Counted from the stretch's first letter, positions 2,267 to 20,000 are shown. The stretch is DNA of 20,000 nucleotides from an uncultured virus (IMG/VR IMGVR_UViG_3300042517_001086) (IMGVR_UViG_3300042517_001086), one strand, 5' to 3'. Translations and numbers: made by a program. Notes: generated by a model from the letters alone, not told the origin.

Positions 2267-2352
2267 GTTAACCCCGCCCCGCCTACTCTGTCGGCAATTA
2301 GCCTAGTTGATCTACGCACTAAGCGTAAACATTCGACGGGAACAGGGTTAAC
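2267..2352 (-). ncRNA. candidate structured RNA (14-bp closing stem, internal hairpins)
   Basis: GTTAACCCTGTTCC pairs with GGGGCGGGGTTAAC using G-U pairs on the minus strand; internal TTTACGC/GCGTAGA hairpin; GC-rich island in an AT-rich intergenic gap. Confidence 0.45.
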
Positions 2353-6376: not shown

Positions 6377-6544
6377 TCATTCATAACCAAAAACTTTCTT
6401 AATTAAGCCCAGAAAATATTCTGATTTAGTTTCAGTCTTTGGTTCAACCTGCTCAATTTTGTCACAACTTTTCGGAGCACAATTCTTTTTACAAACTTTC
6501 TTAGAGCAGGCTTTCTTTTTAGGACTAGATTTCTTTTTTGCCAT
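6377..6544 (-). CDS. small Lys/Cys-rich basic protein (MAKKKSSPKKKACSKK...)
   Basis: ORF track, start moved to 6544 (GAGG RBS; element B occupies the upstream sequence). Confidence 0.65.
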   Translation of the reverse strand: MAKKKSSPKKKACSKKVCKKNCAPKSCDKIEQVEPKTETKSEYFLGLIKKVFGYE

Positions 6545-9689: not shown

Positions 9690-9896
9690 TTAGTTCTCCA
9701 GAATATCAGGGTAGTAGTCAGAGATTTGATCTTCCAACATTTTATTAGTCAAACCCTCTTTATTATCTCTCAACATATCATAAGCAAAAGTCCACAGAGT
9801 ATTAAAGTCCATGTCATCCAAAAGTCTGTGACAATAGATGTTAGTAATATCCTGTCGATTTTCATCAGTTACAATAATTTTTTCTTTCTGCATCAC
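9690..9896 (-). CDS. hypothetical protein
   Basis: ORF track; GGGAG RBS. Confidence 0.7.
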   Translation of the reverse strand: MMQKEKIIVTDENRQDITNIYCHRLLDDMDFNTLWTFAYDMLRDNKEGLTNKMLEDQISDYYPDILEN

Positions 9897-10014
9897 AAAG
9901 GGCTCCCGGTTTTTGCCTGACTATAAGACTATATAACAAAATCTAACTAACTTTATCTATTGAGAATAAATCTCAACTATTAGTCGCTTTGTTACTATCG
10001 TTGTTACACTGTTC

Positions 10015-10065
10015 AGTATACCACACTCTGCAACTTGACGCAACTGGTTGAAACATAAGAACTTA
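10015..10065 (-). promoter_or_regulatory. sigma70-like promoter overlapped by a single element-A palindrome (10041-10065)
   Basis: TTGCGT-N17-TATACT; CAACTGGTT-N7-AAGAACTTA. Confidence 0.55.
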
Positions 10066-10100
10066 GGAACAGAGTAGCTTGTTACTATTGACATAATTCT

Positions 10101-10146
10101 CGCTGACTAACAGCAACGGCAGCAAATCCGCTGGATTAGGCGAGAC
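10101..10146. repeat. element B copy 5
   Basis: CGCTGACT-N14-CAAAT-N7-ATTAG-N2-GAGAC. Confidence 0.85.
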
Positions 10147-10192
10147 AAATGAATATAATCCTATCTTTACATTATTCATTATTATTTTAACC

Positions 10193-10268
10193 TAACCCTT
10201 TGCCCAGTAACCACTTACGTCCACATACAGTATATCGTCATCGTAACCCATTGCCAACAGCCAACTTA
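10193..10268. repeat. two extra element-A palindromes (10193-10217, 10244-10268)
   Basis: TAACCCTTT-N7-AACCACTTA and TAACCCATT-N7-GCCAACTTA. Confidence 0.6.
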
Positions 10269-10292
10269 TGAGATTCTTTTACTAAATTGACG

Positions 10293-10370
10293 CAAGTCGT
10301 TGGTATCAAATAACTTAGAGAAATTTCGGGCGCCCCGGCTTGTCGTAAGTCCTTTGAGCATAAGGGTTTG
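10293..10370. repeat. element A copy 1 (78 bp, paired palindromes)
   Basis: CAAGTCGTT-N7-AATAACTTA / 28 bp GC-rich / TAAGTCCTT-N7-AAGGGTTTG. Confidence 0.85.
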
Positions 10371-10389
10371 CGTCAAGTGATCTAGACAC

Positions 10390-10425
10390 AAAAAAGAACC
10401 GCCACCCATTGCTGAGTGGCGGCTC
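10390..10425 (-). terminator. rho-independent terminator of the DUF932 gene
   Basis: GAGCCGCCACTCA-GCAA-TGGGTGGCGGTTC followed by TTTTTT. Confidence 0.85.
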
Positions 10426-10450
10426 CCGTGTCAACCCCTATTGCGAGGGA

Positions 10451-11401
10451 TTAGAGTGCTTGAGCGAACTGCATGGCCTTTTCCAGAGCCTTGGTGTTGT
10501 CGTTCGCGTTCAGTCCGAACCACAGGCTGTCGAGCCGATTATCTTCGGTGCGACCCTTATTGTAATTCAGATACTCGTTGTAGCCGTTATACGCGGCCCA
10601 CCACGTTCCACGCACACCCGTTGCACTCTGTTTCGGGCCTTCGACCAGAGCCAGAATCTCGTCCATAATGTTACGGGTGCGAGTCTTGATCTGATCGTCC
10701 GGCGTACCGTCAATGTCGAGCATCACCTTGACATAGCGACGAACGTCGGCCTGATTGAAGTTCTTCGACGCGAGGAACTTGAACTGTTCCGCAGTCGCCT
10801 CAAACTCCATGTTGATATTGTCCATAATATCTCGCACATTTTCCAGATTGGTCTTGCTGGAACGTGTGTGACGAATACGGATCAACTTGGAACCACTAGC
10901 CTTGCTATGGGCCATCGCCATAGTGTTAGCACACACAACGCGGATCGGCGTGTAGCCAACCCGGATAGCGGTCGTGCCATCGTGCGAGTTGCTGAGAAGA
11001 ATGAACTTCCCAACCTCGTCACCCTTCACGATCTCGCTGTTGTCGCGGTTCAGTTGGGCCAGAACCCAAACTTTCTGACCGCTGTGGAGCGAACCGGCAG
11101 TATGCAATGCACACTCGCCAGCGTCCAGAAACGGCTGGAACCAATCGAACGCCTCGCTGTTTTGTAGCGGGGTGTATCGCGGGCCGACAACGCCCAAAAT
11201 GCTGTCATCGGTCTTGCGATAGGTCGCACGGGCCGGAACGGGTTGCCCGTCCACCGTGACCAAATCCTTCAGACCAACTTCCCAATCCAAACCGGCGGCA
11301 GTCATCGCCTCCGAAACCGTGGGAGCCTCGTCGAGCTTATTGCCCAGACCGTGCCACGGGGTCGCACCAACAAACATCATCTGTTCAACTGCATGAGCCA
11401 T
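10451..11401 (-). CDS. DUF932 family phage/plasmid protein (TIGR03299-like)
   Basis: PWHGLG, AGLDWEV, LGVVGPRYTPLQN, NSHDGT, TPIRVVCANT, GTWWAAYN motifs; GAAAGGGA RBS. Confidence 0.9.
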   Translation of the reverse strand: MAHAVEQMMFVGATPWHGLGNKLDEAPTVSEAMTAAGLDWEVGLKDLVTVDGQPVPARATYRKTDDSILGVVGPRYTPLQNSEAFDWFQPFLDAGECALHTAGSLHSGQKVWVLAQLNRDNSEIVKGDEVGKFILLSNSHDGTTAIRVGYTPIRVVCANTMAMAHSKASGSKLIRIRHTRSSKTNLENVRDIMDNINMEFEATAEQFKFLASKNFNQADVRRYVKVMLDIDGTPDDQIKTRTRNIMDEILALVEGPKQSATGVRGTWWAAYNGYNEYLNYNKGRTEDNRLDSLWFGLNANDNTKALEKAMQFAQAL

Positions 11402-11444
11402 AATCATCCCTTTCGTGTTGCTGTTCAATCGTTCTTATGCACTG

Positions 11445-11485
11445 ATTCTACACTATATTATCGGCAGTGTCAAGCGAAAACTTTG
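11445..11485 (-). promoter_or_regulatory. nested sigma70 / sigma28-like promoter
   Basis: TTGACA-N17-TAGAAT plus CAAAG-N15-GCCGATAA. Confidence 0.8.
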
Positions 11486-11503
11486 GAAAAATTCCGCAGG
11501 TCG

Positions 11504-11581
11504 TAAGTGGTTGGCAGATAAGGACTTACGGCGACCGGGGCCGCCCCGCCTTGTCCTAAGTCTTTGGCTGGTAAGGGTTTA
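11504..11581. repeat. element A copy 2
   Basis: TAAGTGGTT-N7-AAGGACTTA / 28 bp / TAAGTCTTT-N7-AAGGGTTTA; contains the PRT stop codon. Confidence 0.9.
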
Positions 11582-12059
11582 GGATGATCGTCCCAAACTG
11601 CTTCTCAAAATATTTAGAATTAGAAGCATTGAAAGCACACTCCTCACCAAGATAGAAATATGCCCCGATACACTTTGCTCTTGGAGTATCGTCATTGATA
11701 CTATCCATAATATGTTTGATAGTATTTCCAGAACAAATCAAATCATCAATAATAACGTATCGAGATGGAGTAACGCCTTCAATAAAAAATTCGCTATATC
11801 GTTTTTCATCCTTGCGAACGATAATAATATTTTTATTAAGAATCTCTGCAATCTGTGGCACTACCATCAAACCACTTACGCCACAACAGGCAATGCTATC
11901 AAAATCATTCTCAATCTTACGCAGAGAGCAGATAGCCTTGATAATCACACCATTCCTATATTTGTGATTTAACACTCGGCTAGTATGAGCAGCCCCTTGA
12001 ATTATCTTGCCGTCTGGGGTACGCCGAAAATCATCAAGCTCTTGCTGAAAAGCGTTCAT
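11556..12059 (-). CDS. type I phosphoribosyltransferase-like protein
   Basis: PRPP-binding motif YVIIDDLICSGNT; preceding IACCGVSG and VRK loop. Confidence 0.85.
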   Translation of the reverse strand: MNAFQQELDDFRRTPDGKIIQGAAHTSRVLNHKYRNGVIIKAICSLRKIENDFDSIACCGVSGLMVVPQIAEILNKNIIIVRKDEKRYSEFFIEGVTPSRYVIIDDLICSGNTIKHIMDSINDDTPRAKCIGAYFYLGEECAFNASNSKYFEKQFGTIILNPYQPKT

Positions 12060-12061
12060 AA

Positions 12062-12146
12062 AGTGTGTGGTCGGATTTGAACCGACAATCCCGATAAGAA
12101 AGAAAGGAATTAAGAATAGGGTCTAGTCCCACCTAGATGCACACAC
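12062..12146 (-). ncRNA. tRNA-like RNA with an expanded (20-nt) pyrimidine-rich anticodon loop
   Basis: Acceptor GTGTGTG/CACACAC+T; D-arm TCTAG/CTAGA; T-arm GTCGG-TTCAAAT-CCGAC; imperfect anticodon stem CCTAT/ATCGG enclosing TCTTAATTCCTTTCTTTCTT. Confidence 0.75.
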
Positions 12147-12152
12147 AAAAAA

Positions 12153-12329
12153 TCAATCTTCATCTTCCTCAATACTAGGATAATAGTTCTTGCCATAAGA
12201 TGGAACCTCGTCATCTTCTTCCTCAAGATCATTCATCCAAGGTTCTTCATCCAGACCAAGATCCTCGGTATTTTCTACCAATTCATCGTAGTCATAGTTA
12301 TAGCCGTCATAGTAATCTTCATATCTCAT
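12153..12329 (-). CDS. 58-aa highly acidic, Tyr-rich protein
   Basis: Manually translated MRYEDYYDGYNYDYDE...IEEDED; 24 D/E versus 2 K/R; AAGAAAGGGAG RBS; own promoter. Confidence 0.75.
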   Translation of the reverse strand: MRYEDYYDGYNYDYDELVENTEDLGLDEEPWMNDLEEEDDEVPSYGKNYYPSIEEDED

Positions 12330-12353
12330 ATTTCTACTCCCTTTCTTACCTCT

Positions 12354-12381
12354 ATTCTACACCAACAATCGTCACTGTCAA
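12354..12381 (-). promoter_or_regulatory. sigma70 promoter with internal GACGAT
   Basis: TTGACA-N16-TAGAAT immediately 3' of tRNA-Lys. Confidence 0.65.
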
Positions 12382-12382
12382 G

Positions 12383-12455
12383 TGGGCCCTCGGGGACTCG
12401 AACCCCGAACCTATCGGTTAAAAGCCGAATGCTCTGCCAATTGAGCTAAAGGCCC
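12383..12455 (-). tRNA. tRNA-Lys(TTT)
   Basis: Cloverleaf; anticodon loop CTTTTAA; TTCGAGT T-loop. Confidence 0.93.
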
Positions 12456-12461
12456 GCCTTA

Positions 12462-12638
12462 TTATTCGGTTACGGTAATTTCCTCGTAAGAATAACTTTG
12501 GATATTTTCGGTTGTAAAATCATACAGCTTGTCGAAAACATCGACCCAATCAAAATCCTCTTGCATAGAGAGAGTAATTTCGGCCAGAGATTTACCATCC
12601 TCAGTCAGAATATCATAGATGCGAAGGTTCTTCATCAT
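12462..12638 (-). CDS. acidic hypothetical protein
   Basis: ORF track, start moved to MMKNLR (AAGAAAGGAA RBS). Confidence 0.7.
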   Translation of the reverse strand: MMKNLRIYDILTEDGKSLAEITLSMQEDFDWVDVFDKLYDFTTENIQSYSYEEITVTE

Positions 12639-12660
12639 CACTTTCCTTTCTTGTTCCAAC

Positions 12661-12703
12661 AGTCTACCATACCAATATCGTCCTGTCAACACCCAAAACT
12701 TTA
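12661..12703 (-). promoter_or_regulatory. nested sigma70 / sigma28-like promoter
   Basis: TTGACA-N17-TAGACT plus TAAAG-N16-GACGATAT. Confidence 0.75.
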
Positions 12704-12710
12704 AGATTCT

Positions 12711-12756
12711 CGCTGACTATCGCCAAGACCACCAAATCCGTAGGATTAGCAGAAAC
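12711..12756. repeat. element B copy 6
   Basis: CGCTGACT-N14-CAAAT-N7-ATTAG-N2-GAAAC; 3 bp from the tRNA-Glu 3' end. Confidence 0.85.
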
Positions 12757-12759
12757 AAA

Positions 12760-12831
12760 TGACCCCACTGGGTTACGCTCCCAGGTCTCCGGCGTGAAAG
12801 GCCAGCGTACTAACTACTATACTATGGGGCC
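12760..12831 (-). tRNA. tRNA-Glu(TTC), atypical T-loop AGCGTAA
   Basis: GGCCCCA/TGGGGTC; anticodon loop CTTTCAC; T-stem CTGGG/CCCAG. Confidence 0.85.
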
Positions 12832-12866
12832 GCACTCGCAACTCAAACATCAGCCTCCGATTAGCA

Positions 12867-12907
12867 ATCATACATCTGTTATCGGCAGTTGTCAAGGCCA
12901 GCCTTTA
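12867..12907 (-). promoter_or_regulatory. nested sigma70 / sigma28-like promoter
   Basis: TTGACA-N17-TATGAT plus TAAAG-N16-GCCGATAA. Confidence 0.8.
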
Positions 12908-12915
12908 GAAAATCC

Positions 12916-12993
12916 TAAGTCTTTATGGTACAAGCACTTACGTCGAAGGCGGTCCGCCACATTTGTTCTAAGTCCTTTCATACCAACAACTTA
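12916..12993. repeat. element A copy 3
   Basis: TAAGTCTTT-N7-AAGCACTTA / 28 bp / TAAGTCCTT-N7-AACAACTTA; 1 bp from the tRNA-Tyr 3' end. Confidence 0.9.
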
Positions 12994-12994
12994 G

Positions 12995-13076
12995 TGGTAG
13001 ATGCTGGATTCGAACCAGCGAAGGCAATGCCAGCAGATTTACAGTCTGCCCTCGTTGTCCACTTGAGTAATCTACC
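12995..13076 (-). tRNA. tRNA-Tyr(GTA)
   Basis: GGTAGAT/ATCTACC; anticodon loop CTGTAAA; long variable arm. Confidence 0.93.
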
Positions 13077-13080
13077 TAAA

Positions 13081-13167
13081 CGGCTGGAACAGGATTCGAA
13101 CCTGTGGACGGTTTTAATCGTCACATCTTTAGCAAAGATGCGCATTAGACCACTCTGCCATCCAGCC
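13081..13167 (-). tRNA. tRNA-Ser(GCT)
   Basis: GGCTGGA/TCCAGCC; anticodon loop TTGCTAA; long variable arm; G73. Confidence 0.93.
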
Positions 13168-13846
13168 TCAGTTCTTTTCTATTAGTATTTATCCCGTATT
13201 CTTTTGCCCATTTTCTTACAGCATTATCTGATACGTCAAATATTGCAGCAGTTTGTGTCCAATTATTCTTTATAAGTAACGCTATTAATTCTTCTTTTGA
13301 TGGTCTTTCTTTTACTTTTCTTCTATTTATTTTTGCACAAGTATATGAGCAGTATTTTTTATTGTATGTATTATTGTAACAAACAACACATGCATTGTAT
13401 TGTTTTTTTTGTTTTTTTCTAGAGATAGACGATTCTAGATCTACTGCTCTATAGGTCTGTTGTTTTATATTAGTTCTAGATTCTTTATATCCATTTAACT
13501 CTTCATGTAGTTCTCTATGACAGTTAGAGCATAACAATAAACACTTATCCGCTTCTTGTGTTAATTTTTTCCAACTCTGAGTATTTCCATTACTAGACAA
13601 TCCAAAATCTTTTTCGTTTGGATCCTTATGATGGAAATCTAAAGCTGAAACGCACTTATTATAACCGCACTTTTCACACTTTCCACCCTTATAGTCTACT
13701 AAATCTTTTTTGAGTCTTTTTCTTTTTCTACTAACAGCATCCATCCTGCATTTAGTACAACGATAATATCCTCTATTTTCCAGAATAAACTTTACATCAC
13801 CATGATGTTTACAGTTTCTAGTTATATACCTATCTTTATTTTCCAT
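13145..13846 (-). CDS. HNH endonuclease with C-terminal HTH
   Basis: CEKCGY...ALDFHHKDP...CLLLCSNCHRELH; C-terminal WTQTAAIFDVSDNAVRKW HTH; stop codon lies inside tRNA-Ser. Confidence 0.85.
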   Translation of the reverse strand: MENKDRYITRNCKHHGDVKFILENRGYYRCTKCRMDAVSRKRKRLKKDLVDYKGGKCEKCGYNKCVSALDFHHKDPNEKDFGLSSNGNTQSWKKLTQEADKCLLLCSNCHRELHEELNGYKESRTNIKQQTYRAVDLESSISRKKQKKQYNACVVCYNNTYNKKYCSYTCAKINRRKVKERPSKEELIALLIKNNWTQTAAIFDVSDNAVRKWAKEYGINTNRKELRLDGRVV

Positions 13847-13864
13847 GACCTATTTTTCTAAAAG

Positions 13865-13936
13865 CTGTGGGAACTGGTTCTGCCCCAGTATCTTACACTT
13901 TAACAGAGTGCCGCATTACTGTTATGCTATCCCACA
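13865..13936 (-). tRNA. tRNA-Asn(GTT), atypical T-loop GGCAGAA
   Basis: TGTGGGA/TCCCACA; anticodon loop CTGTTAA; T-stem ACTGG/CCAGT. Confidence 0.85.
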
Positions 13937-13960
13937 ATGGTATGTCTTGATCGTTATACC

Positions 13961-13972
13961 ATATAATACACC
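13961..13972 (-). promoter_or_regulatory. GGTGTATTAT motif upstream of tRNA-Asn and HNH
   Basis: GGTGTATTATAT identical to 4586-4597. Confidence 0.45.
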
Positions 13973-14007
13973 AAAGTTCGATTTTTAATCTGTTTTTCAA
14001 TTAAATA

Positions 14008-14080
14008 ATCCGCGGGGTGGATTTGAACCACCACTCAGCTGATCCAAAGTCAGCCGCTTTGCCAGTTAAGCTACCGCGGA
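14008..14080 (-). tRNA. tRNA-Gln(TTG)
   Basis: TCCGCGG/CCGCGGA; anticodon loop CTTTGGA; TTCAAAT T-loop. Confidence 0.92.
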
Positions 14081-14085
14081 ACAAG

Positions 14086-14158
14086 AGCCAGTGGCAGGAG
14101 TTGCACCCGCGACATTCAAATTACAAATTTGACGCTCTGCTGACTGAGCTACACTGGC
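14086..14158 (-). tRNA. tRNA-Thr(TGT), T-loop TGCAACT
   Basis: GCCAGTG/CACTGGC; anticodon loop TTTGTAA. Confidence 0.9.
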
Positions 14159-14174
14159 ATACTACTAATTATAC

Positions 14175-14336
14175 TCAATAGTCCCCATTCTCGCAAGCCC
14201 TGCGATTTTCAGCGGATCGGGTTCGGGTTCGCTTGGGGCGATTGTCCATAACGGTATGACGGTGTTCCTTGTGACCCGTAGGAACTTGCCACTGCGGTCG
14301 AACCTTGATTTTGATATGGTTGCGTTTGGGTCGCAT
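14175..14336 (-). CDS. small basic protein (MRPKRNHIKIKV...), overlapping the upstream gene
   Basis: ORF track; Arg/Lys/His-rich; start uncertain, no clear SD. Confidence 0.45.
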   Translation of the reverse strand: MRPKRNHIKIKVRPQWQVPTGHKEHRHTVMDNRPKRTRTRSAENRRACENGDY

Positions 14337-14583
14337 ATCGTCGTTGTTGTGGAGCGTAATCATGCCATTGTCCATTTTCGTGTAAGTAGAAAACCTTGTC
14401 AATATTAGGATCGTAAGCCATCAGACAGTATTGTACCGGATAAACTGGCTTTGTCAATACTTGTTTTTGCTCTTGTGAAGGATGACGCAAAGGTGGAATT
14501 TTTATATCACCCTTTTGGTAGTCCTTAACCCCATTATACGCCAGACCCACCACAGCAATCAATATCCCAATCCACTGGATCAT
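14209..14583 (-). CDS. membrane-anchored protein with Gln/Tyr-rich tail
   Basis: ORF track, start moved to MIQWIG; N-terminal TM. Confidence 0.65.
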   Translation of the reverse strand: MIQWIGILIAVVGLAYNGVKDYQKGDIKIPPLRHPSQEQKQVLTKPVYPVQYCLMAYDPNIDKVFYLHENGQWHDYAPQQRRYATQTQPYQNQGSTAVASSYGSQGTPSYRYGQSPQANPNPIR

Positions 14584-14626
14584 TCTCTCGCCCTTTGTTG
14601 ATTCCCTTCTCGTTCTCATATCCTTA

Positions 14627-14655
14627 TTATCGACCAATCACCACCCTAAACTTTA
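14627..14655 (-). promoter_or_regulatory. stand-alone sigma28-like promoter
   Basis: TAAAG(TTT)-N16-GTCGATAA with no TTGAC. Confidence 0.65.
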
Positions 14656-14675
14656 GGAGTTTTCTGGAATTTCTC

Positions 14676-14753
14676 TAAGTCCGCATCCTGCAACAACTTA
14701 CGTCAAATCCGGCCGCCCCCGCTCGCCCTAAGTGCTTATGCAGTAAGGGTTTG
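14676..14753. repeat. element A copy 4
   Basis: TAAGTCCGC-N7-AACAACTTA / 28 bp / TAAGTGCTT-N7-AAGGGTTTG. Confidence 0.9.
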
Positions 14754-14762
14754 CGGAAAGTG

Positions 14763-14927
14763 TTACATATCCACTTCTGTCCTAATATACTCCATATCCT
14801 TCTCACACTTTGTGCAAAAGGGTTCGCCATTTTCGGAATAGAACCAAGGTTCAACATAAACTAGATTATCACAATCTGCACATTCCCACAAGTGCCTTAC
14901 TTTTTTATCGTCTATTTTTGTCCACAT
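14763..14927 (-). CDS. 54-aa zinc-ribbon protein (CADC...CTKC)
   Basis: Manually translated MWTKIDDKKVRHLWECADC...; TAATG coupling. Confidence 0.65.
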   Translation of the reverse strand: MWTKIDDKKVRHLWECADCDNLVYVEPWFYSENGEPFCTKCEKDMEYIRTEVDM

Positions 14928-15157
14928 TATTCAATACTCCATCCGGCATCTTTGAGAATATGAGTAGTATGCAACACACAAGTTAATCCATCAGCATTTG
15001 TATAGTTTCTATATCCGCGTTCATCAAGGTAGATATGTTCATCCAGCGTGTCGTTTTCATTTGTTTCCCATATAGCATCCATCGCAGCATCCCTCGGACA
15101 TTTGTTGCAGGAATAAATTAGTTCTAGTGTCCCACATTTGATATAATACTTTGCCAT
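14927..15157 (-). CDS. hypothetical protein
   Basis: ORF track; AGGGG RBS. Confidence 0.7.
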   Translation of the reverse strand: MAKYYIKCGTLELIYSCNKCPRDAAMDAIWETNENDTLDEHIYLDERGYRNYTNADGLTCVLHTTHILKDAGWSIE

Positions 15158-15159
15158 GA

Positions 15160-15729
15160 TTATCCCCTGTCTCTAAATTGTTGGCAGTGAACACAATTAC
15201 ACGCCCCATAACCATCAACATCTTCATCAGCATCATAATCAAACTTTCCATAAATATCTTCATCCCAATCAGTAAAACTCTCAATCCCAAGGTCAATCAC
15301 AACCGGAACCCATGATCCTTTGCGTCGAACATAACCAAAGTTACCCTTGTGAGAATCATTATACTCTAAGCCATGCTCACCCAAATCATAAACTAGCTCA
15401 GAGATAGTAGTACCGTTCTTACATTCGCTCTGAAAACATTCACCATCACAATCCTCATCATGACATTCCGGCATAGTACGAGCCACTTCGGTCAAATAAC
15501 CATGAGCAGTCAACTCACCATCATGCCTACGAATCATACCAACATCCCCATATACCATAGGAGCCAAATTAAACTCGGCCAGATATTTTTGAACCCGATG
15601 GGCAAACTCTGCTTCTTGTTTATTCTCAAATTCTTTAAAGCCCACACGTTTACGGCCAATCTTTTTGTCTTTAATAATATAGAAAGCATTTTTACTTCCT
15701 GCATCATCATACAATCCAACGTAGCTCAT
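15160..15729 (-). CDS. minimal protein-kinase-like protein
   Basis: VGFK lysine, LAPMVYG, catalytic-loop-like YNDSHKGNFG, VVIDLG (DFG equivalent); Cys clusters. Confidence 0.7.
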   Translation of the reverse strand: MSYVGLYDDAGSKNAFYIIKDKKIGRKRVGFKEFENKQEAEFAHRVQKYLAEFNLAPMVYGDVGMIRRHDGELTAHGYLTEVARTMPECHDEDCDGECFQSECKNGTTISELVYDLGEHGLEYNDSHKGNFGYVRRKGSWVPVVIDLGIESFTDWDEDIYGKFDYDADEDVDGYGACNCVHCQQFRDRG

Positions 15730-15762
15730 AGCTTTCCCTTTCCAAGTTGGTGATACTCCACC

Positions 15763-15804
15763 ATTCTACAGTATCTTATCGACAAATGCAATAGTGAAAC
15801 TTGA
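15763..15804 (-). promoter_or_regulatory. nested sigma70 / sigma28-like promoter
   Basis: TTGCAT-N17-TAGAAT plus TCAAG-N16-GTCGATAA. Confidence 0.75.
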
Positions 15805-15812
15805 ATAATCTC

Positions 15813-15890
15813 TAAAGTCTTATGAGTCAAGGACTTACGACCGATCCGTCCGCTCGCCCTTGCCGTAAGTCTTTTACTGACAAGGATTTA
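15813..15890. repeat. element A copy 5
   Basis: TAAAGTCTT-N7-AAGGACTTA / 28 bp / TAAGTCTTT-N7-AAGGATTTA. Confidence 0.9.
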
Positions 15891-15919
15891 TAGAAAATCT
15901 CCTCTCCCCGTCAATTTTT

Positions 15920-15929
15920 GGTGTATTAT
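15920..15929 (+). promoter_or_regulatory. GGTGTATTAT motif upstream of HNH gene
   Basis: 17 bp before the ATG, followed by AAGGAG RBS. Confidence 0.45.
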
Positions 15930-15946
15930 TATTTAAAGGAGCTTTT

Positions 15947-16537
15947 ATGAAAAAAACACCCCAGTCCAAGATTGATAATAATTGTAAATGGGCTAAAAAT
16001 AATGTTAATAAAGTACGTCAATATAAACGCAAATACAAACACGAACAAAAAAGATTAGCCAGAGAACATATTAAATTCATAAAAGAACTTTCTGGTTGTA
16101 AAACTTGTGGAAATAAAAATATCCACTGTCTAGATTTCCATCATCGCCCTAAAACTAAAAAGAAAAATACAGTATGTAATCTTGTACGTCATGGATATTC
16201 TCTTGAAATAATTAAAAGAGAAATAAAAAAATGTGATATTATTTGCTCTAATTGCCATAGAACATATCATTACACTGGCAAGTATATGAGGAATAAAAAA
16301 GGTGCCTTAGTACATACTATTAAATCAAATAGTAAGTGCTTATATTGTAGTTGTAATAATATAGAATGTCTAGATTTTCATCACACAGATGACAATAAAG
16401 AACATAGTATAGGTGCAATGATACGAGATAAAGCCGTATCTATAGAACAGTTAAAAACAGAGATTGAAAAATGTATCATACTCTGCTCTAACTGTCATAG
16501 AACGCTTCATGCTAATGACAGGGAAAAAGAACATTAG
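15947..16537 (+). CDS. tandem double-HNH endonuclease
   Basis: Two repeats of CxxC...CLDFHH...CSNCHR; AT-rich; convergent 26-bp overlap with the GP88-like gene. Confidence 0.85.
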   Translation: MKKTPQSKIDNNCKWAKNNVNKVRQYKRKYKHEQKRLAREHIKFIKELSGCKTCGNKNIHCLDFHHRPKTKKKNTVCNLVRHGYSLEIIKREIKKCDIICSNCHRTYHYTGKYMRNKKGALVHTIKSNSKCLYCSCNNIECLDFHHTDDNKEHSIGAMIRDKAVSIEQLKTEIEKCIILCSNCHRTLHANDREKEH

Positions 16538-17222
16538 GCTTATCTTTATCGAGACACATATTGCAAGCCTGACTATCCTTTGTTCCAGTGCATGTAACAA
16601 ATGAACGACCACGACGAATCTCTGGACAAGTGATAAACTTTTCACCTTCAAGTATTACCAGTTTCGGTAGAGCCTGACGCCATGCGTCTGCCTTTGCTTT
16701 ATTTTTGGGTCGCTTTGGTGCAATTTTTTGGTCGCTGTCACACCATGCGAACTTGGTAAAACCCTTAGATTTTGCAATCTTCATATGTTCACCATTATGA
16801 ATACTAGCAAAGATAGAAAAATACTTGCCAAGTTGTGCTGGAATACGCTCGTCATAAACATGGGTATAAAACCACATTTTTGGCAAAGTATCACCATCGG
16901 CCAGAATACTATCGCAAGCCCAGACTACATTCTCTACAAAGCTAATATCAAGTTCGCCATTCAGCAACCAATCGCCACGTTCCATAAATCGAATACTACG
17001 ATTACGACGCTTGGCTTCTAGAATCATAGAGCGGATACGATTCTTTTCTGTGATAAGATTCTGCATACCAGCAGGGCGAACACCCGGATAAATCTTCTCA
17101 GTGTTTTCGGCATAACAACCATTATCAAGAAATGCACAGTCTGGCGGGCAAGTATCCCCAACCGGGCGAGAAACTACCAGACAATTTTTGCCGAGCTTGT
17201 CATTACCTTCAGCGTACTTCAT
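16512..17222 (-). CDS. GP88-like Cys-rich phage protein
   Basis: GNDKLG, TCPPDC...GCYA, RF...GD, WFYTH, C-terminal TCPE...TC...CNMC pattern; AGGAG RBS. Confidence 0.65.
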   Translation of the reverse strand: MKYAEGNDKLGKNCLVVSRPVGDTCPPDCAFLDNGCYAENTEKIYPGVRPAGMQNLITEKNRIRSMILEAKRRNRSIRFMERGDWLLNGELDISFVENVVWACDSILADGDTLPKMWFYTHVYDERIPAQLGKYFSIFASIHNGEHMKIAKSKGFTKFAWCDSDQKIAPKRPKNKAKADAWRQALPKLVILEGEKFITCPEIRRGRSFVTCTGTKDSQACNMCLDKDKPNVLFPCH

Positions 17223-17243
17223 GTTCTTCTCCTGTGTCTACTG

Positions 17244-17285
17244 ATTCTACACTATGGTATCGGCATAGTCAAGCGAAAAACTTCA
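17244..17285 (-). promoter_or_regulatory. nested sigma70 / sigma28-like promoter
   Basis: TTGACT-N17-TAGAAT plus TGAAG-N16-GCCGATAC; closely similar to 11445-11485. Confidence 0.8.
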
Positions 17286-17302
17286 AAAAATTATTCTTGA
17301 TG

Positions 17303-17380
17303 CAAGTTGTTGTGAAATAAGGACTTACGACGAACCGGGGCGGCCGGGCTTGTCCTAAGTGCTTATGCAGTAAGGGTTTA
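17303..17380. repeat. element A copy 6
   Basis: CAAGTTGTT-N7-AAGGACTTA / 28 bp / TAAGTGCTT-N7-AAGGGTTTA. Confidence 0.9.
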
Positions 17381-17387
17381 TGACAAA

Positions 17388-17461
17388 CGAGAGCGACGGG
17401 ACTCGAACCCGCAACCTCTAGCGTGACAAGCTAGCGATCTAACCAATTGATCTACGCCCCC
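17388..17461 (-). tRNA. tRNA-Asp(GTC)
   Basis: GGGGGCG/CGCTCTC; anticodon loop TTGTCAC; G73. Confidence 0.92.
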
Positions 17462-17466
17462 AATAA

Positions 17467-17538
17467 TAGCCCCAAGAGGAATCGAACCTCTAACCAGTGC
17501 TTAGAAGGCACTTGTTATATCCATTTAACTATGGGGCC
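17467..17538 (-). tRNA. tRNA-Arg(TCT)
   Basis: GGCCCCA/TGGGGCT; anticodon loop CTTCTAA. Confidence 0.92.
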
Positions 17539-17603
17539 GCAATACCGCAAGCCCCCACGGCGTCCCGTGGAGGCTCGCAGCCATTATAACTCCTTAGAGT
17601 CGA

Positions 17604-17861
17604 TCACGCAACTGCTTCAGTAGTTTCCTTTTCTACCTTACCGTCATGGGCATCACCAGCCTGTTCAGCAGTCACACCCGTAACCCTCGCTCGCCACACC
17701 TTATAACCTTGCTCGCTGAAAGCCTTGACCTCACCGGCCTTGACATTAGCGTGAACATCGCCAGGAAGGCTATCGCTCAGGCAATCACGAATCGAATCAA
17801 CCACGCCGTCACGATCAAGCTCATCGGCCACAACATCAACCACAAAACTAAACTTCTTCAT
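17604..17861 (-). CDS. hypothetical protein
   Basis: ORF track, start moved to MKKFSF (GGAG RBS); two upstream promoters. Confidence 0.75.
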   Translation of the reverse strand: MKKFSFVVDVVADELDRDGVVDSIRDCLSDSLPGDVHANVKAGEVKAFSEQGYKVWRARVTGVTAEQAGDAHDGKVEKETTEAVA

Positions 17862-17908
17862 CTTACATTCTCCAAAAAGTGTTACAGTTACCAAATCGTT
17901 CTAGTATC

Positions 17909-17937
17909 AGTATACGCTACTGTTACCCACTTGTCAA
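17909..17937 (-). promoter_or_regulatory. sigma70 promoter
   Basis: TTGACA-N17-TATACT. Confidence 0.75.
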
Positions 17938-17997
17938 GTCCGTCGTGATGGTTTCTGTTGTTGGCATCATCGCGGAGTCTTGTCTCGTGATACTCTC

Positions 17998-18038
17998 ATT
18001 CTACAGTATAGTATCGTCATTGTCAAGCCGGAACTTGA
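17998..18038 (-). promoter_or_regulatory. nested sigma70 / sigma28-like promoter
   Basis: TTGACA-N17-TAGAAT plus TCAAG-N15-GACGATAC. Confidence 0.8.
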
Positions 18039-18067
18039 GTGTCCCTCAAAAATTTTTGTTTTTGTCC

Positions 18068-18145
18068 TAAGTTGTTTGCTGATAAGGACTTATGTCAAAT
18101 TCGGCCCGCCCCGTTTGCCGTAAGTCTTTACAGCATAGGGGTTTA
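18068..18145. repeat. element A copy 7
   Basis: TAAGTTGTT-N7-AAGGACTTA / 28 bp / TAAGTCTTT-N7-AGGGGTTTA; 2 bp from the stop of the bL12-like gene. Confidence 0.9.
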
Positions 18146-18147
18146 GG

Positions 18148-18522
18148 TTATGAGAGATAACCCTCACAACCCAATCCAGCCAGATCACGCAGCAGTGCCT
18201 CTGCCGCTTCGGGCGTTTTCAGCATCATGCTCTGCTTGGTTCCTGCCGGTGCCGGATACCACTTGTCGTACTTCCAACCACCAACCAGAAAGTCGGTCCA
18301 ATCCTTTGCCTCTTTCAGTCCCCACCCGGTGTGAAGACGAATAGCTTTGATGCAAGGGATACGATTATCCGTATTCATTCCAGCAGTAATCGTCACACAA
18401 CGACGCTGGTTCACACCCAGTGCAACTTCCAACGAGCAAACAATCTTCTCGAACATGTCGAGACTGCAACCGTTGGCAATCATGTTCAGAGACTCACGGA
18501 CGCTCAGTTCGACTTTGATCAT
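18148..18522 (-). CDS. ribosomal protein bL12 (L7/L12) C-terminal-domain-like protein
   Basis: NRIPCIKAIRLHTGWGLKEAKDWTD and EAAEALLRDLAGLG resemble the bL12 CTD ([24 protein letters not shown]...AEALKKALEEAG). Confidence 0.75.
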   Translation of the reverse strand: MIKVELSVRESLNMIANGCSLDMFEKIVCSLEVALGVNQRRCVTITAGMNTDNRIPCIKAIRLHTGWGLKEAKDWTDFLVGGWKYDKWYPAPAGTKQSMMLKTPEAAEALLRDLAGLGCEGYLS

Positions 18523-19003
18523 AAATTCCAAAACTTTCTGTATACTTAGGGTCTATCTCGTAAATGCCGTCAAAATTTCCGTTACGTTCTTCCAGAATAT
18601 GTACCTGTCGCCCATCGGTAACTAAGGTGTCATACTCACTGTTATCCCAAACAAATTCACCACCATCACTCTCCCTACGCCAATGTACGTCTTTGATTGG
18701 GTTATAATACAACTTCTCAAGATTGTCAATAGGCAAAGAGGGATAAAAATCCTTGCGAAGCATAACTTCTTCACACTGCACCCAACCACTAACATTCTTT
18801 TTCTGTTTCTTATTGACCCATTTTGCCCTAGCTACCTTATTTACCAGCTTGCAACCACGCATCTCTAACTGGTATTCTGTAGGATCTACATAAAATTGGT
18901 CAACCCTTTTCTTACCCTGCATAATATTTACTTGCCACTTCCGATAGTTCTGCCCATTGAGCAGATGGAATCGTACTTCGGCGTGTTTTTCGACCGTTTT
19001 CAT
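18494..19003 (-). CDS. hypothetical phage protein
   Basis: ORF track; GAGG RBS; ATGA overlap. Confidence 0.75.
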   Translation of the reverse strand: MKTVEKHAEVRFHLLNGQNYRKWQVNIMQGKKRVDQFYVDPTEYQLEMRGCKLVNKVARAKWVNKKQKKNVSGWVQCEEVMLRKDFYPSLPIDNLEKLYYNPIKDVHWRRESDGGEFVWDNSEYDTLVTDGRQVHILEERNGNFDGIYEIDPKYTESFGIYDQSRTERP

Positions 19004-19245
19004 TTACCTCTCCCGATAACAACGCATGACGTAGGCTCGTCGCCTTCCATATCCTTGTAGTACGTTGCGTGTCGCCCATTATACCAATAAAGCTTTTCTT
19101 GTCCATCCCAATTATCATCAACAACAACAGCCCCATTCCTCTGAACTTCGATATTGTCGTATCCACCCTCGTAACCCGGCACCAGTACCAGCATATCTTG
19201 GGGTAGCTTGTTCAGTTCTTCGATCAATTCGGCAACAGTCATCAT
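19000..19245 (-). CDS. hypothetical phage protein (MTVAELIEELNKLPQD...GYEGGYD)
   Basis: ORF track; GAAAGGGA RBS; promoter upstream. Confidence 0.75.
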   Translation of the reverse strand: MMTVAELIEELNKLPQDMLVLVPGYEGGYDNIEVQRNGAVVVDDNWDGQEKLYWYNGRHATYYKDMEGDEPTSCVVIGRGK

Positions 19246-19266
19246 ATTCCCTTTCGTGTTACCACT

Positions 19267-19308
19267 ATCTTACACTACTATTATCGACAAGTCAAGAGGG
19301 AATCTTGA
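19267..19308 (-). promoter_or_regulatory. nested sigma70 / sigma28-like promoter
   Basis: TTGACT-N17-TAAGAT plus TCAAG-N15-GTCGATAA. Confidence 0.75.
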
Positions 19309-19325
19309 AAAAATATTGCTAATCG

Positions 19326-19403
19326 TAAAGTCTTTAGAGATAAGGACTTACGTCGAAACCGGCCCGCCCGATTTGCTCTAAGTCGTTATGTAGCGGTAAC
19401 TTA
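19326..19403. repeat. element A copy 8
   Basis: TAAAGTCTT-N7-AAGGACTTA / 28 bp / TAAGTCGTT-N7-GGTAACTTA; contains the stop codon of the upstream gene. Confidence 0.9.
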
Positions 19404-19512
19404 TGTACCACCAACCACAATCTCCGCATAAACTCCAAACAAGACCATGCTTATCAACAGTATACATAATTTCATTACAGTTGCCACAACCACACATGTT
19501 AAAAGTTTTCAT
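19378..19512 (-). CDS. 44-aa zinc-ribbon micro-protein (CGNC...CGDC)
   Basis: ORF track, start moved to MKTFNM. Confidence 0.55.
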   Translation of the reverse strand: MKTFNMCGCGNCNEIMYTVDKHGLVWSLCGDCGWWYISYRYITT

Positions 19513-19516
19513 AATT

Positions 19517-19774
19517 TCAACCACTAGGATAATCTGGTGGGTAAGGCTGTTCTGGTGGTGGTGGTTTTGGTTGCCCCTCATCGGGTTGCCAGTATGGAGC
19601 ATCCATATAATCTACATTACCGGGAGCTTCACTACAATCAATATTGTGAATACAAAAAGGATCATTATAGTTTATCCTATATGTTCCACGCCACACACCA
19701 ATAGGCTCACCATAATAGATGATCTTCTGACCATTAATAGGACGACGAGGTCCGTGGAAACTAATCCATTCCAT
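19517..19774 (-). CDS. hypothetical protein (MEWIS...; DUF551-like, Pro-rich tail)
   Basis: ORF track; TAATG coupling; GAGGTGG RBS. Confidence 0.7.
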   Translation of the reverse strand: MEWISFHGPRRPINGQKIIYYGEPIGVWRGTYRINYNDPFCIHNIDCSEAPGNVDYMDAPYWQPDEGQPKPPPPEQPYPPDYPSG

Positions 19775-19944
19775 TAGGATGCCACCTCTGTTTCGCAGTC
19801 CATCAGTTTATTAAAAACACGTTCTTGCATCTTCATAAACTGATTCTGATTTCCCCAATATTCTCCACGCTCCATATTCTCACATACCAGATTATACAAA
19901 TAGTTAATTTCGGTTTTGGTCAGCTCAAGCGTTGTAGTTTTCAT
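19774..19944 (-). CDS. 56-aa hypothetical protein (MKTTTLELTKTEINYLYNLV...)
   Basis: Manually translated; TAA overlaps the next ATG. Confidence 0.65.
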   Translation of the reverse strand: MKTTTLELTKTEINYLYNLVCENMERGEYWGNQNQFMKMQERVFNKLMDCETEVAS

Positions 19945-20000
19945 CCCTTAGTAACCTCAATACTCCACTTAGTACCCTTCAACTCAGCAATCACACACAT

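Follow-up and report, generated by a model that had tools for sequence, protein, structure and literature searches.

The DNA analysed here, a 20,000-nucleotide window given as one strand, corresponds to bases 187200-207199 of a 243,821-bp record of an uncultured virus (IMG/VR IMGVR_UViG_3300042517_001086) that has direct terminal repeats and a G+C content of 35.6%. Between window positions 10293 and 19403 lie eight copies of a double-palindrome element, set among genes and tRNAs of the minus strand, and the order in the direction of transcription is an upstream gene or tRNA, an element, an AT-rich gap, a promoter and the next gene; the AT-rich gap between element and promoter was read directly in 40 example intervals. 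The element stands between cassettes, each an autonomous unit of promoter and gene (or tRNA), that form one hyperplastic array of about 19 kb, both in this 244-kb lake jumbo phage and in its relatives. Within the window the cassettes (10451-19602, minus strand) carry DUF932, PRTase-like and GP88/DUF7227-like genes, many ORFans, two HNH genes and eight tRNAs, and over the whole array the genes other than ORFans comprise DUF932, PRTase-like, GP88/DUF7227-like, DUF7249, Kyano_Gp96 and HNH genes together with tRNAs.

All eight copies listed in the initial annotation were recovered at the starts it gave and align without gaps; the starts of their 25-bp palindromes are exactly 53 bp apart around a 28-bp linker, as it had stated, and the 26-mer it reported as common to copies 4 and 6 is present. 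Its length of 78 bp holds for the core of the unit and not for the whole, the conserved TTGNCS/SGNCAA flanks bringing the full length to 88 bp. A search for AAGNACTTA-N28-TAAGT with up to two mismatches returned 17 matches in the window, namely the eight elements on both strands and a solo half at 10057, against a chance level of 0.97 ± 1.05, and none of 200 shuffles reached 17. The solo half is a left palindrome (10032-10066, plus strand) composed of a TTGACG flank, an arm, an N7 spacer and a AAGAACTTA arm, and it has neither the G+C core nor the right half of a complete element.

Six of the eight copies overlap the end of a minus-strand gene or tRNA or lie 0-9 bp from it, in agreement with the earlier remark that most copies adjoin a preceding 3′ end. 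Copies 2 (11504-11581) and 8 (19326-19403; all copies are given on the plus strand) contain, at element positions 53-55 in both cases, the TAG stops of the open reading frames (ORFs) 11556-12059 and 19378-19602 (minus strand), the two genes previously described as stopping inside an element. Copy 3 (12916-12993) directly abuts the 3′ end of tRNA-Tyr (12994-13076, minus strand; 0 bp), copy 6 (17303-17380) lies 6 bp past that of tRNA-Asp (17387-17462, minus strand), and copies 4 (14676-14753) and 7 (18068-18145) lie 9 and 2 bp past the stops of ORFs 14763-14927 and 18148-18531 (both minus strand). A plus-strand HNH gene begins 57 bp to the right of copy 5 (15813-15890). Copy 1 (10293-10370), the last element in the direction of transcription, is downstream of a canonical intrinsic terminator (10394-10427, minus strand) that is placed between the DUF932 gene and the element and is the only one in window positions 9800-20000.

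Distribution and anatomy of the element

A profile built from the eight window copies located 18 copies in the whole genome (E-values 1e-9 to 3e-21), all of them within the 19-kb stretch at 197.5-216.5 kb, and found no convincing copy elsewhere in the genome. The half-site 9-mer is nearly restricted to the array as well (13 of 14 and 12 of 18 genome occurrences). Related phages, for which the initial annotation had likewise proposed a scan, carry similar arrays: each of five complete relatives (G002-G006, 200-238 kb) has one array, with 28-35 strand matches within 17-20 kb and 0-1 matches to a reversed-pattern control. An exact 16-base version of the pattern occurs on at least 179 viral-contig stretches, and a profile search of the matches listed gave 936 located matches and 403 distinct copies in context. 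Of these 403, 397 have the same length without gaps, a set that includes 291 copies with less than 80% identity among themselves. No element matched an Rfam family at its gathering score.

Per-position counts over the 397 copies resolve the 88 bp into 15-7-15 bp, a 14-bp core of G+C only and again 15-7-15 bp. The half-site of 15 bp, TTGNCS-TAAGTNCTT, carries TTGNCS on the outer side of each arm, and four half-sites in alternating orientation make up the two 15-7-15 inverted pairs. Information amounts to 1.4-1.97 bits at TAA, TT, AA and TTA in all four arms, the inner arms being the best conserved, and to about 0-0.3 bits in both N7 spacers; most core positions are low too. The centres of the GTAAG/CTTAC pentamers fall at positions 2, 24, 55 and 77, and their spacing of 22, 31 and 22 bp is close to 2, 3 and 2 helical turns, so that the four sites would share one face of the helix. 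All four arms being variants of a single 9-mer, two drawings of the strand are possible: one long hairpin, or a core hairpin between two short ones.

In bacterial genome bins, examined by a motif-based host search, true elements were found on only five contigs of about 3.8-141 kb whose DNA looks phage-like (loci L199, L207-L209, L216, L235, L195 and L277, in bins of unrelated taxa), and these contigs are probably phage DNA binned by mistake. A separate repeat without an Rfam match was noticed in a 4.3-Mb gammaproteobacterial bin (G001, loci L312-L335), where GTAAATTCCGGA-N4-TAAGGACTTA is present in 24 copies, with 0 for a reversed control; most copies come after a stretch of C at the end of a gene, and some form tandems spaced by 84 bp. 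We do not use it as evidence, since the 11-mer and the 28-bp spacing that the two share were largely selected by the search pattern, and its resemblance to the phage arm may be due to chance.

Promoters, stop codons and base pairing

Six window copies (1, 2, 3, 6, 7 and 8) are followed by a minus-strand promoter called by the scan, with gaps beyond element position 1 of 35, 30, 20, 30, 41 and 30 bp, respectively. The promoter beyond element 1 is TTGGCA-17-TATACT (10229-10257, 10/12). Those beyond elements 2 (sigma-70-type, TTGACA-17-TAGAAT, 11445-11473, 11/12), 3 (TTGACA-17-TATGAT, 12867-12895, 11/12) and 6 (TTGACT-17-TAGAAT, 17244-17272, 10/12) are predicted to drive the DUF932 gene (10451-11428), tRNA-Glu with the genes that follow it, and the GP88/DUF7227-like gene (16512-17222). 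Element 7 is followed by TTGACA-17-TAGAAT (17998-18026, 11/12) and element 8 by a promoter-like site, TTGACT-17-TAAGAT (19267-19295, 9/12). A weaker minus-strand promoter 21 bp beyond element 5 (TTGCAT-17-TAGAAT, 15763-15791) lies under the scan threshold and was recognized by eye. The 8-29 bp given in the initial annotation differ from the 20-41 bp measured here only in the point from which distance is taken. Copy 4 has no promoter of at least 9/12 within 110 bp, the nearest being no closer than 113 bp.

The same polarity holds in the larger set, in which 288 of 383 copies have a sigma-70-type match of at least 10/12 just past arm 1a on the opposite strand, against only 50 of 383 with a promoter pointing away from the other side of the element. 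Gaps from position 1 to the -35 box are most often 20, 30-31 or 41-42 bp long, and less pronounced maxima occur near 53 and 64 bp; the step is 10.5-11 bp, and the maxima persist after crude clustering into 196 groups. On the other side a long upstream ORF ends nearby in 329 of the 383 copies, and in 224 its stop begins at element positions 25-91, with peaks that coincide with conserved triplets of the element (position 83 in 53 copies, 84 in 29, 78 in 26, 55 in 23, 90 in 21 and 25 in 14).

Two further features of the promoter regions were recorded. A perfect palindrome, CCTTAC-N6-GTAAGG, stands between element and promoter at genome positions 214052 and 215677 (L002 6853-6870 and 8478-8495); these are its only two occurrences in this genome, both in the array, it is frequent in relatives, and it adds two GTAAG-type pentamers one helical turn apart. 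Many strong minus-strand promoters at 159-216 kb of the genome have TG ahead of the -10 box and CGATA within the spacer, CGATA being present in 19 of the 60 sites scoring at least 11/12.

At variable positions Watson-Crick pairs are as frequent as column composition predicts, whether in the long hairpin, in either short hairpin or between N7 and N7′. Pairing was also counted in 137 diverse copies with 500 shuffles per model. Paired cells make up 65.1% in the long hairpin (66.4 ± 0.4 in shuffles), 68.6% in the three-hairpin model (70.0 ± 0.4) and 68.6% in the left palindrome alone (71.1 ± 0.5), all 500 shuffles equalling or exceeding the native value in each of the three, and 73.5% in the right palindrome alone (73.3 ± 0.5), a value reached by 190 of 500 shuffles. 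Pairing in excess of slid partners (31-51%) arises because the consensus is itself palindromic, and amounts to no more than that. Chimeras assembled from halves of different copies fold better than native copies by 0.7-2.1 kcal/mol on both strands, for the whole element as well as for its core, inner arms and left palindrome; only in the right palindrome is the native form slightly better (-0.5 and -1.15 kcal/mol). Mutual information over all pairs of columns was dominated by neighbouring columns and uninformative, and the targeted pair tests were used in its place. Across four independent tests no compensatory change or selection for pairing was found, and the arms are conserved as sequence rather than as base pairs. 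This absence of selection for pairing, taken with conservation that is specific to position, points to a recognition site in duplex DNA. Homogenisation among copies is rejected as the source of the likeness, because it leaves unexplained how the spacers can be free while the same trinucleotides are fixed in four arms.

Individual copies nevertheless differ in hairpin potential. The 90-nt element has a mean folding energy of about -26 kcal/mol on either strand, and a folding advantage of the plus strand in the eight window copies vanished over 397 copies (-26.5 vs -25.7 kcal/mol). On the transcribed strand the z-scores of copies 1-8 are -2.95, 0.19, -2.77, -0.38, -1.85, -2.68, -3.27 and -0.26, and the predicted folds differ from copy to copy. 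The terminator scan flagged 5 terminator-like sites in the region (7.1 expected), one of them canonical; none of the eight elements is among the five, and the core is followed by no U tract, UUUGA being the most that is found.

Cassette exchange and gene content

Relatives at 70-90% identity keep the general order of the array and differ in insertions, deletions and replacements, and many alignment blocks stop inside an element or within about 65 bp of one. For a flank test we selected copy pairs sharing at least 80% identity in a segment of the flank 130 bp away from the element (111 and 127 pairs). In the nearer segment of the same flank 91-96% of these pairs stay similar and 2-5% are unrelated, whereas across the element 38-54% stay similar and 39-53% are unrelated. 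Breakpoints in gene content map to the element, a correspondence that the initial annotation had proposed to look for. In the block comparisons there is no case in which both flanks are conserved and the element is simply absent.

One exchange can be followed in detail. A cassette encoding 181 amino acids between the elements at genome positions 210340 and 211047 is absent in four relatives (L036, L055, L077 and L081), which have a single element at this place. That element is chimeric, its right half being as in the 211047 element while the start of its linker resembles the 210340 element. Among the 18 copies of the genome the similarities of left and of right halves are uncorrelated (r = -0.10), and identical right palindromes (copies 4 and 6, copies 15 and 17) are paired with different left halves; the left and right halves of the element have independent histories. 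Likelihood change-points in 247 one-sided pairs fall at the left edge, in both spacers, in the core and at the right edge, with about 37 in N7, at limited resolution and over pairs that are not independent events. Because they scatter, there is no sign of a single fixed crossover.

Excised forms or new junctions, which recombination at the spacers might leave behind, were sought by aligning the contigs of 4 runs, and no reliable joints were obtained; a single skip from 11474 to 19340 was discarded, its only support being a contig of depth 2.5 in which one side is 29 letters long and 33 foreign letters separate the sides. The genome holds no tyrosine recombinase above the PF00589 cut-off (the one candidate, whose 24.2 bits fall below it, is a false positive inside an ATP-grasp-like ORF), and none of the five complete relatives has a PF00589 match. 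Resolvase (serine recombinase), rve (DDE) and Y1 (HUH) transposase families are not found in the genome either, the best PF01797 match scoring 12.1 bits. The recombinase that might have lain elsewhere in the genome was not found among the tyrosine, serine, rve and Y1 kinds, and family scans likewise gave no candidate for a regulator binding the element: Pfam and PHROGs scans of the window and array ORFs detected no DNA-binding family, and a Pfam scan of the remaining ORFs detected none except a 199-aa protein with sigma-70 region 4, encoded far from the array. Genes of recombination and repair are present and include RecA, RuvB, two endonuclease VII-domain proteins, ERCC4, a PD-(D/E)XK nuclease and single-strand DNA-binding protein (SSB).

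The cassette ORFs range from 29 to 55% G+C, mostly above the genome value, with the two HNH genes at the low end (29-31%) and the DUF932 gene at 55%, a spread that suggests a foreign origin for several cassettes. The HNH gene beside element 5 (15947-16537, plus strand) is on the opposite strand to its neighbours and has a 55%-identical homologue in L055 (near 11336) that lies 58 bp to the right of a non-orthologous element; a third independent HNH occurrence is 667 bp from an element. These positions hint that HNH genes home next to elements. A tenth tRNA, unreported by ARAGORN, was recognized by Rfam at 13865-13936 (minus strand, 49.7 bits) and adjoins the HNH ORF 13145-13846. The window also holds a second repeat family of 57-66 nt in 5-6 copies (at 6538, 6838, 7788, 8666, 10082 and 12706), with a small conserved hairpin-like core, AAATCC-N3-GGATT; one copy adjoins tRNA-Glu.

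Elsewhere the genome encodes a split DnaE-type polymerase, a DnaB-like helicase, RIIA and many sugar-metabolism genes, and its structural region (genome 13704-33068, plus strand) includes one ORF of 6454 amino acids. By megablast the best match among cultured phages is 63 bp only, so that there is no close cultured relative, and at the protein level polymerase relatives are at most 35% identical. A second viral record (L083 1-12928) is 100% identical to this genome across 12,928 bases, the same phage having been filed twice. Public sequencing runs containing the stretch carry the labels lake water or freshwater metagenome, and no RNA run is among those listed. Outside the array the window contains an Rfam match to DUF3800-VIII RNA (2268-2351, minus strand), which at 40.7 bits barely exceeds the gathering score of 40.2.

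Interpretation and relation to known systems

The initial annotation had offered two readings, recombination sites of an integron-like cassette array and phased double operators. The former is borne out as far as cassette boundaries and breakpoints go and is not supported for an integron or tyrosine-recombinase mechanism, given the enzyme searches that found none, the scattered crossovers, the cassettes' own promoters and the fixed length. The latter fits the data best, if indirectly, through position-specific conservation, lack of covariation and a helically phased promoter distance. We give about even chances to the reading that the repeat is a duplex protein-binding boundary element of promoter-plus-gene cassettes, a counterpart of the promoter/stem-loop cassettes (PeSLs) of T4-type phages, with exchange carried out by the phage recombination machinery. 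The element starts at the upstream stop or a few base pairs from it, often supplying the stop itself, and precedes the next -35 box by about 1-4 helical turns. It would be bound as duplex by a sequence-specific dimer of dimers or higher oligomer, and the complex could insulate a cassette from upstream read-through in the manner of a roadblock-type terminator, tune the adjacent promoter, or both. Cassettes would be exchanged by recombination within or beside the element, the likely agents being the phage RecA, RuvB and endonuclease VII acting on the conserved element-plus-promoter module, as has been proposed for T4-type PeSLs; a dedicated site-specific recombinase is unlikely. The array is presumably expressed early.

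A bolder form of this idea, which we think rather unlikely, is a recombinase-free, integron-like plug-in platform for accessory genes in lake jumbo phages, in which the 88-bp element serves as a socket, its four phased half-sites holding a protein that closes the upstream unit, sets the next promoter and directs breakage or strand exchange to the G+C core, each cassette carrying half an element at either end.

Several observations weigh against the boundary-element reading, for which all evidence is computational. No protein that binds the element was identified, among the array ORFs those best conserved in 46 other contigs belong to no informative family, and look-ups in the Atlas for such a protein gave no usable match. 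Eighteen minus-strand promoters of at least 11/12 at 159-197 kb have no element and are directly preceded by coding sequence; since these strong promoters work without it, the element is not a general promoter component. The steps of about 10.5-11 bp in promoter distance could stem from modular inserts, such as the CCTTAC-N6-GTAAGG palindrome, and not from selection for phasing. With a single canonical terminator in the region some terminator function is needed, and it could be RNA-based; hairpin potential is real in some copies, four of the eight in the window having z below -2.6 on the transcribed strand, with one at -1.85 and three near 0. Finally, the conserved arms, at only 9-15 bp, are short for RecA-type exchange, and the copies are phylogenetically related, so that pair counts are not counts of independent events.

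The hairpin potential of these copies bears on the possibility that the element acts as an RNA or single-stranded DNA stem-loop, as in classical PeSLs, a long imperfect hairpin that terminates or attenuates transcription or protects the 3′ end of the mRNA or tRNA precursor of the preceding cassette, its arms being alike only by homogenisation. The mean folding energy on either strand, the position right after stop codons and tRNA 3′ ends, and the scarcity of canonical terminators between 9800 and 20000 are all in its favour, as is the description of PeSL stem-loops as G/C-rich and shown to terminate transcription (PMC2839356). We nevertheless consider it doubtful. Pairing is at or under the shuffled level, with no compensatory change in any structure tested, native halves pair worse than chimeric ones, three of the eight window copies fold no better than shuffles and into varying folds, and the terminator scan flags none of the eight, which have no U tract. 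Homogenisation, moreover, would not free N7 and core while fixing TAA and TT across four arms, nor does a stem-loop sit well with a length exact to the base in 397 of 403 copies.

Another possibility is a site for site-specific recombination or cleavage, in which the 15-7-15 pair would be the core for a recombinase or homing-type endonuclease (from the host, of an unrecognized family, or the phage HNH or endonuclease VII proteins) that would cut at the element and drive the insertion and excision of cassettes, an integron-like platform without IntI. In core sites of tyrosine recombinases, 6-8 bp separate the inverted arms and the crossover takes place there, and 15-7-15 matches this geometry of arms and spacer; cassette gain and loss are bounded by elements, with a chimeric element at the empty site; left and right halves act like separate units that meet at the core; upstream ORFs terminate within the element, just as ORFs of integron cassettes often do within attC; and an HNH gene lies 57-58 bp to the right of non-orthologous elements in two of three independent occurrences. 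Tyrosine and serine recombinases, rve and Y1 enzymes were not found in the genome, nor tyrosine recombinases in the five relatives, only some 37 of the 247 change-points fall in N7, the aligned contigs gave no reliable joints, and an enzyme with 18 targets in the phage genome itself would call for self-protection; on balance such a site is improbable. Terminal and internal inverted repeats, a short fixed length, the many copies and the solo half element would also suit a selfish miniature inverted-repeat element (MITE), of the REP/BIME or Correia kind, that spread and was then tolerated. This we regard as very improbable indeed, given a single array with one copy per cassette junction, the polarity towards the next promoter (288 vs 50 of 383), the lack of any transposase or RAYT-type enzyme among those found, of any conserved-flank, element-absent case in the block comparisons, and of copies in bacterial bins other than on the five phage-like contigs.

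The array offers a concrete picture of how a widespread lineage of uncultured large phages keeps accessory genes and tRNAs freely exchangeable, with a boundary element far more sequence-specific than the PeSLs of T4-type phages. The motif marks cassette boundaries in metagenomic phage genomes, a help both to annotation and to work on how genes move among lake phages. Should the element prove to be a protein site, it would represent a new pair of DNA and protein recognition partners that could serve as an insulator or cassette junction. No description of the element was found in the open-access literature searched, in which the papers found on PeSLs concern T4-type phages only.

The operators of KorB in IncP plasmids and of C1 in phage P1 resemble the element in being palindromic, in many copies and at varying short distances upstream of the promoters of one replicon. 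The element differs from them in its double palindrome with a G+C core, in being a recombination boundary as well, and in having a regulator that is only predicted. Repetitive extragenic palindromic sequences (REP), the bacterial interspersed mosaic elements (BIMEs) built from them and Correia repeats likewise consist of two imperfect palindromes joined by a defined linker and lie at gene 3′ ends; protein binding and effects on termination and mRNA stability have been reported for them. They are dispersed over chromosomes and tied to RAYT or insertion sequence (IS) enzymes, whereas the present element is confined to a single phage array with strict polarity, one copy per junction and no Y1 enzyme found.

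Integron attC sites, of 57-141 bp with boxes RYYYAAC/GTTRRRY (R′′/L′′-L′/R′), are imperfect inverted repeats at cassette boundaries in which ORFs often end and whose halves belong to neighbouring cassettes, and in these respects the element is similar. In integrons an IntI tyrosine recombinase is encoded next to the array, attC recombines as a folded strand, and the cassettes lack promoters of their own and are expressed from a shared Pc promoter. It differs in the absence of an integrase, in cassettes that have their own promoters, in fixed length, in arms that read TAAGTNCTT with no RYYYAAC/GTTRRRY boxes, in the lack of any sign of a fixed crossover and in conservation as duplex sequence. 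The element is not an integron, failing every defining feature that was tested.

The closest parallel is offered by the PeSLs. These combine a terminator stem-loop rich in G/C with an AT-rich stretch and a sigma-70 promoter and cluster in hyperplastic regions, the stem-loop being a simple Gn-loop-Cn or A3-4G3-loop-C3T3-4 hairpin with demonstrated terminator activity; the cassettes mediate modular shuffling by recombination and form mini-circles (PMC2839356, PMC4122927). The present phage is not T4-like, having a split DnaE-type polymerase and RecA, and its element is a fixed 88-bp unit in which four half-sites are sequence-specific, a U tract is absent and pairing shows no covariation. Both are intergenic composites of about 100 bp in which a palindromic part rich in G/C and an AT-rich stretch come together with a sigma-70 promoter close to the consensus; both are set among ORFans in hyperplastic regions, indels and replacements map to them, and exchange is ascribed to homologous recombination.

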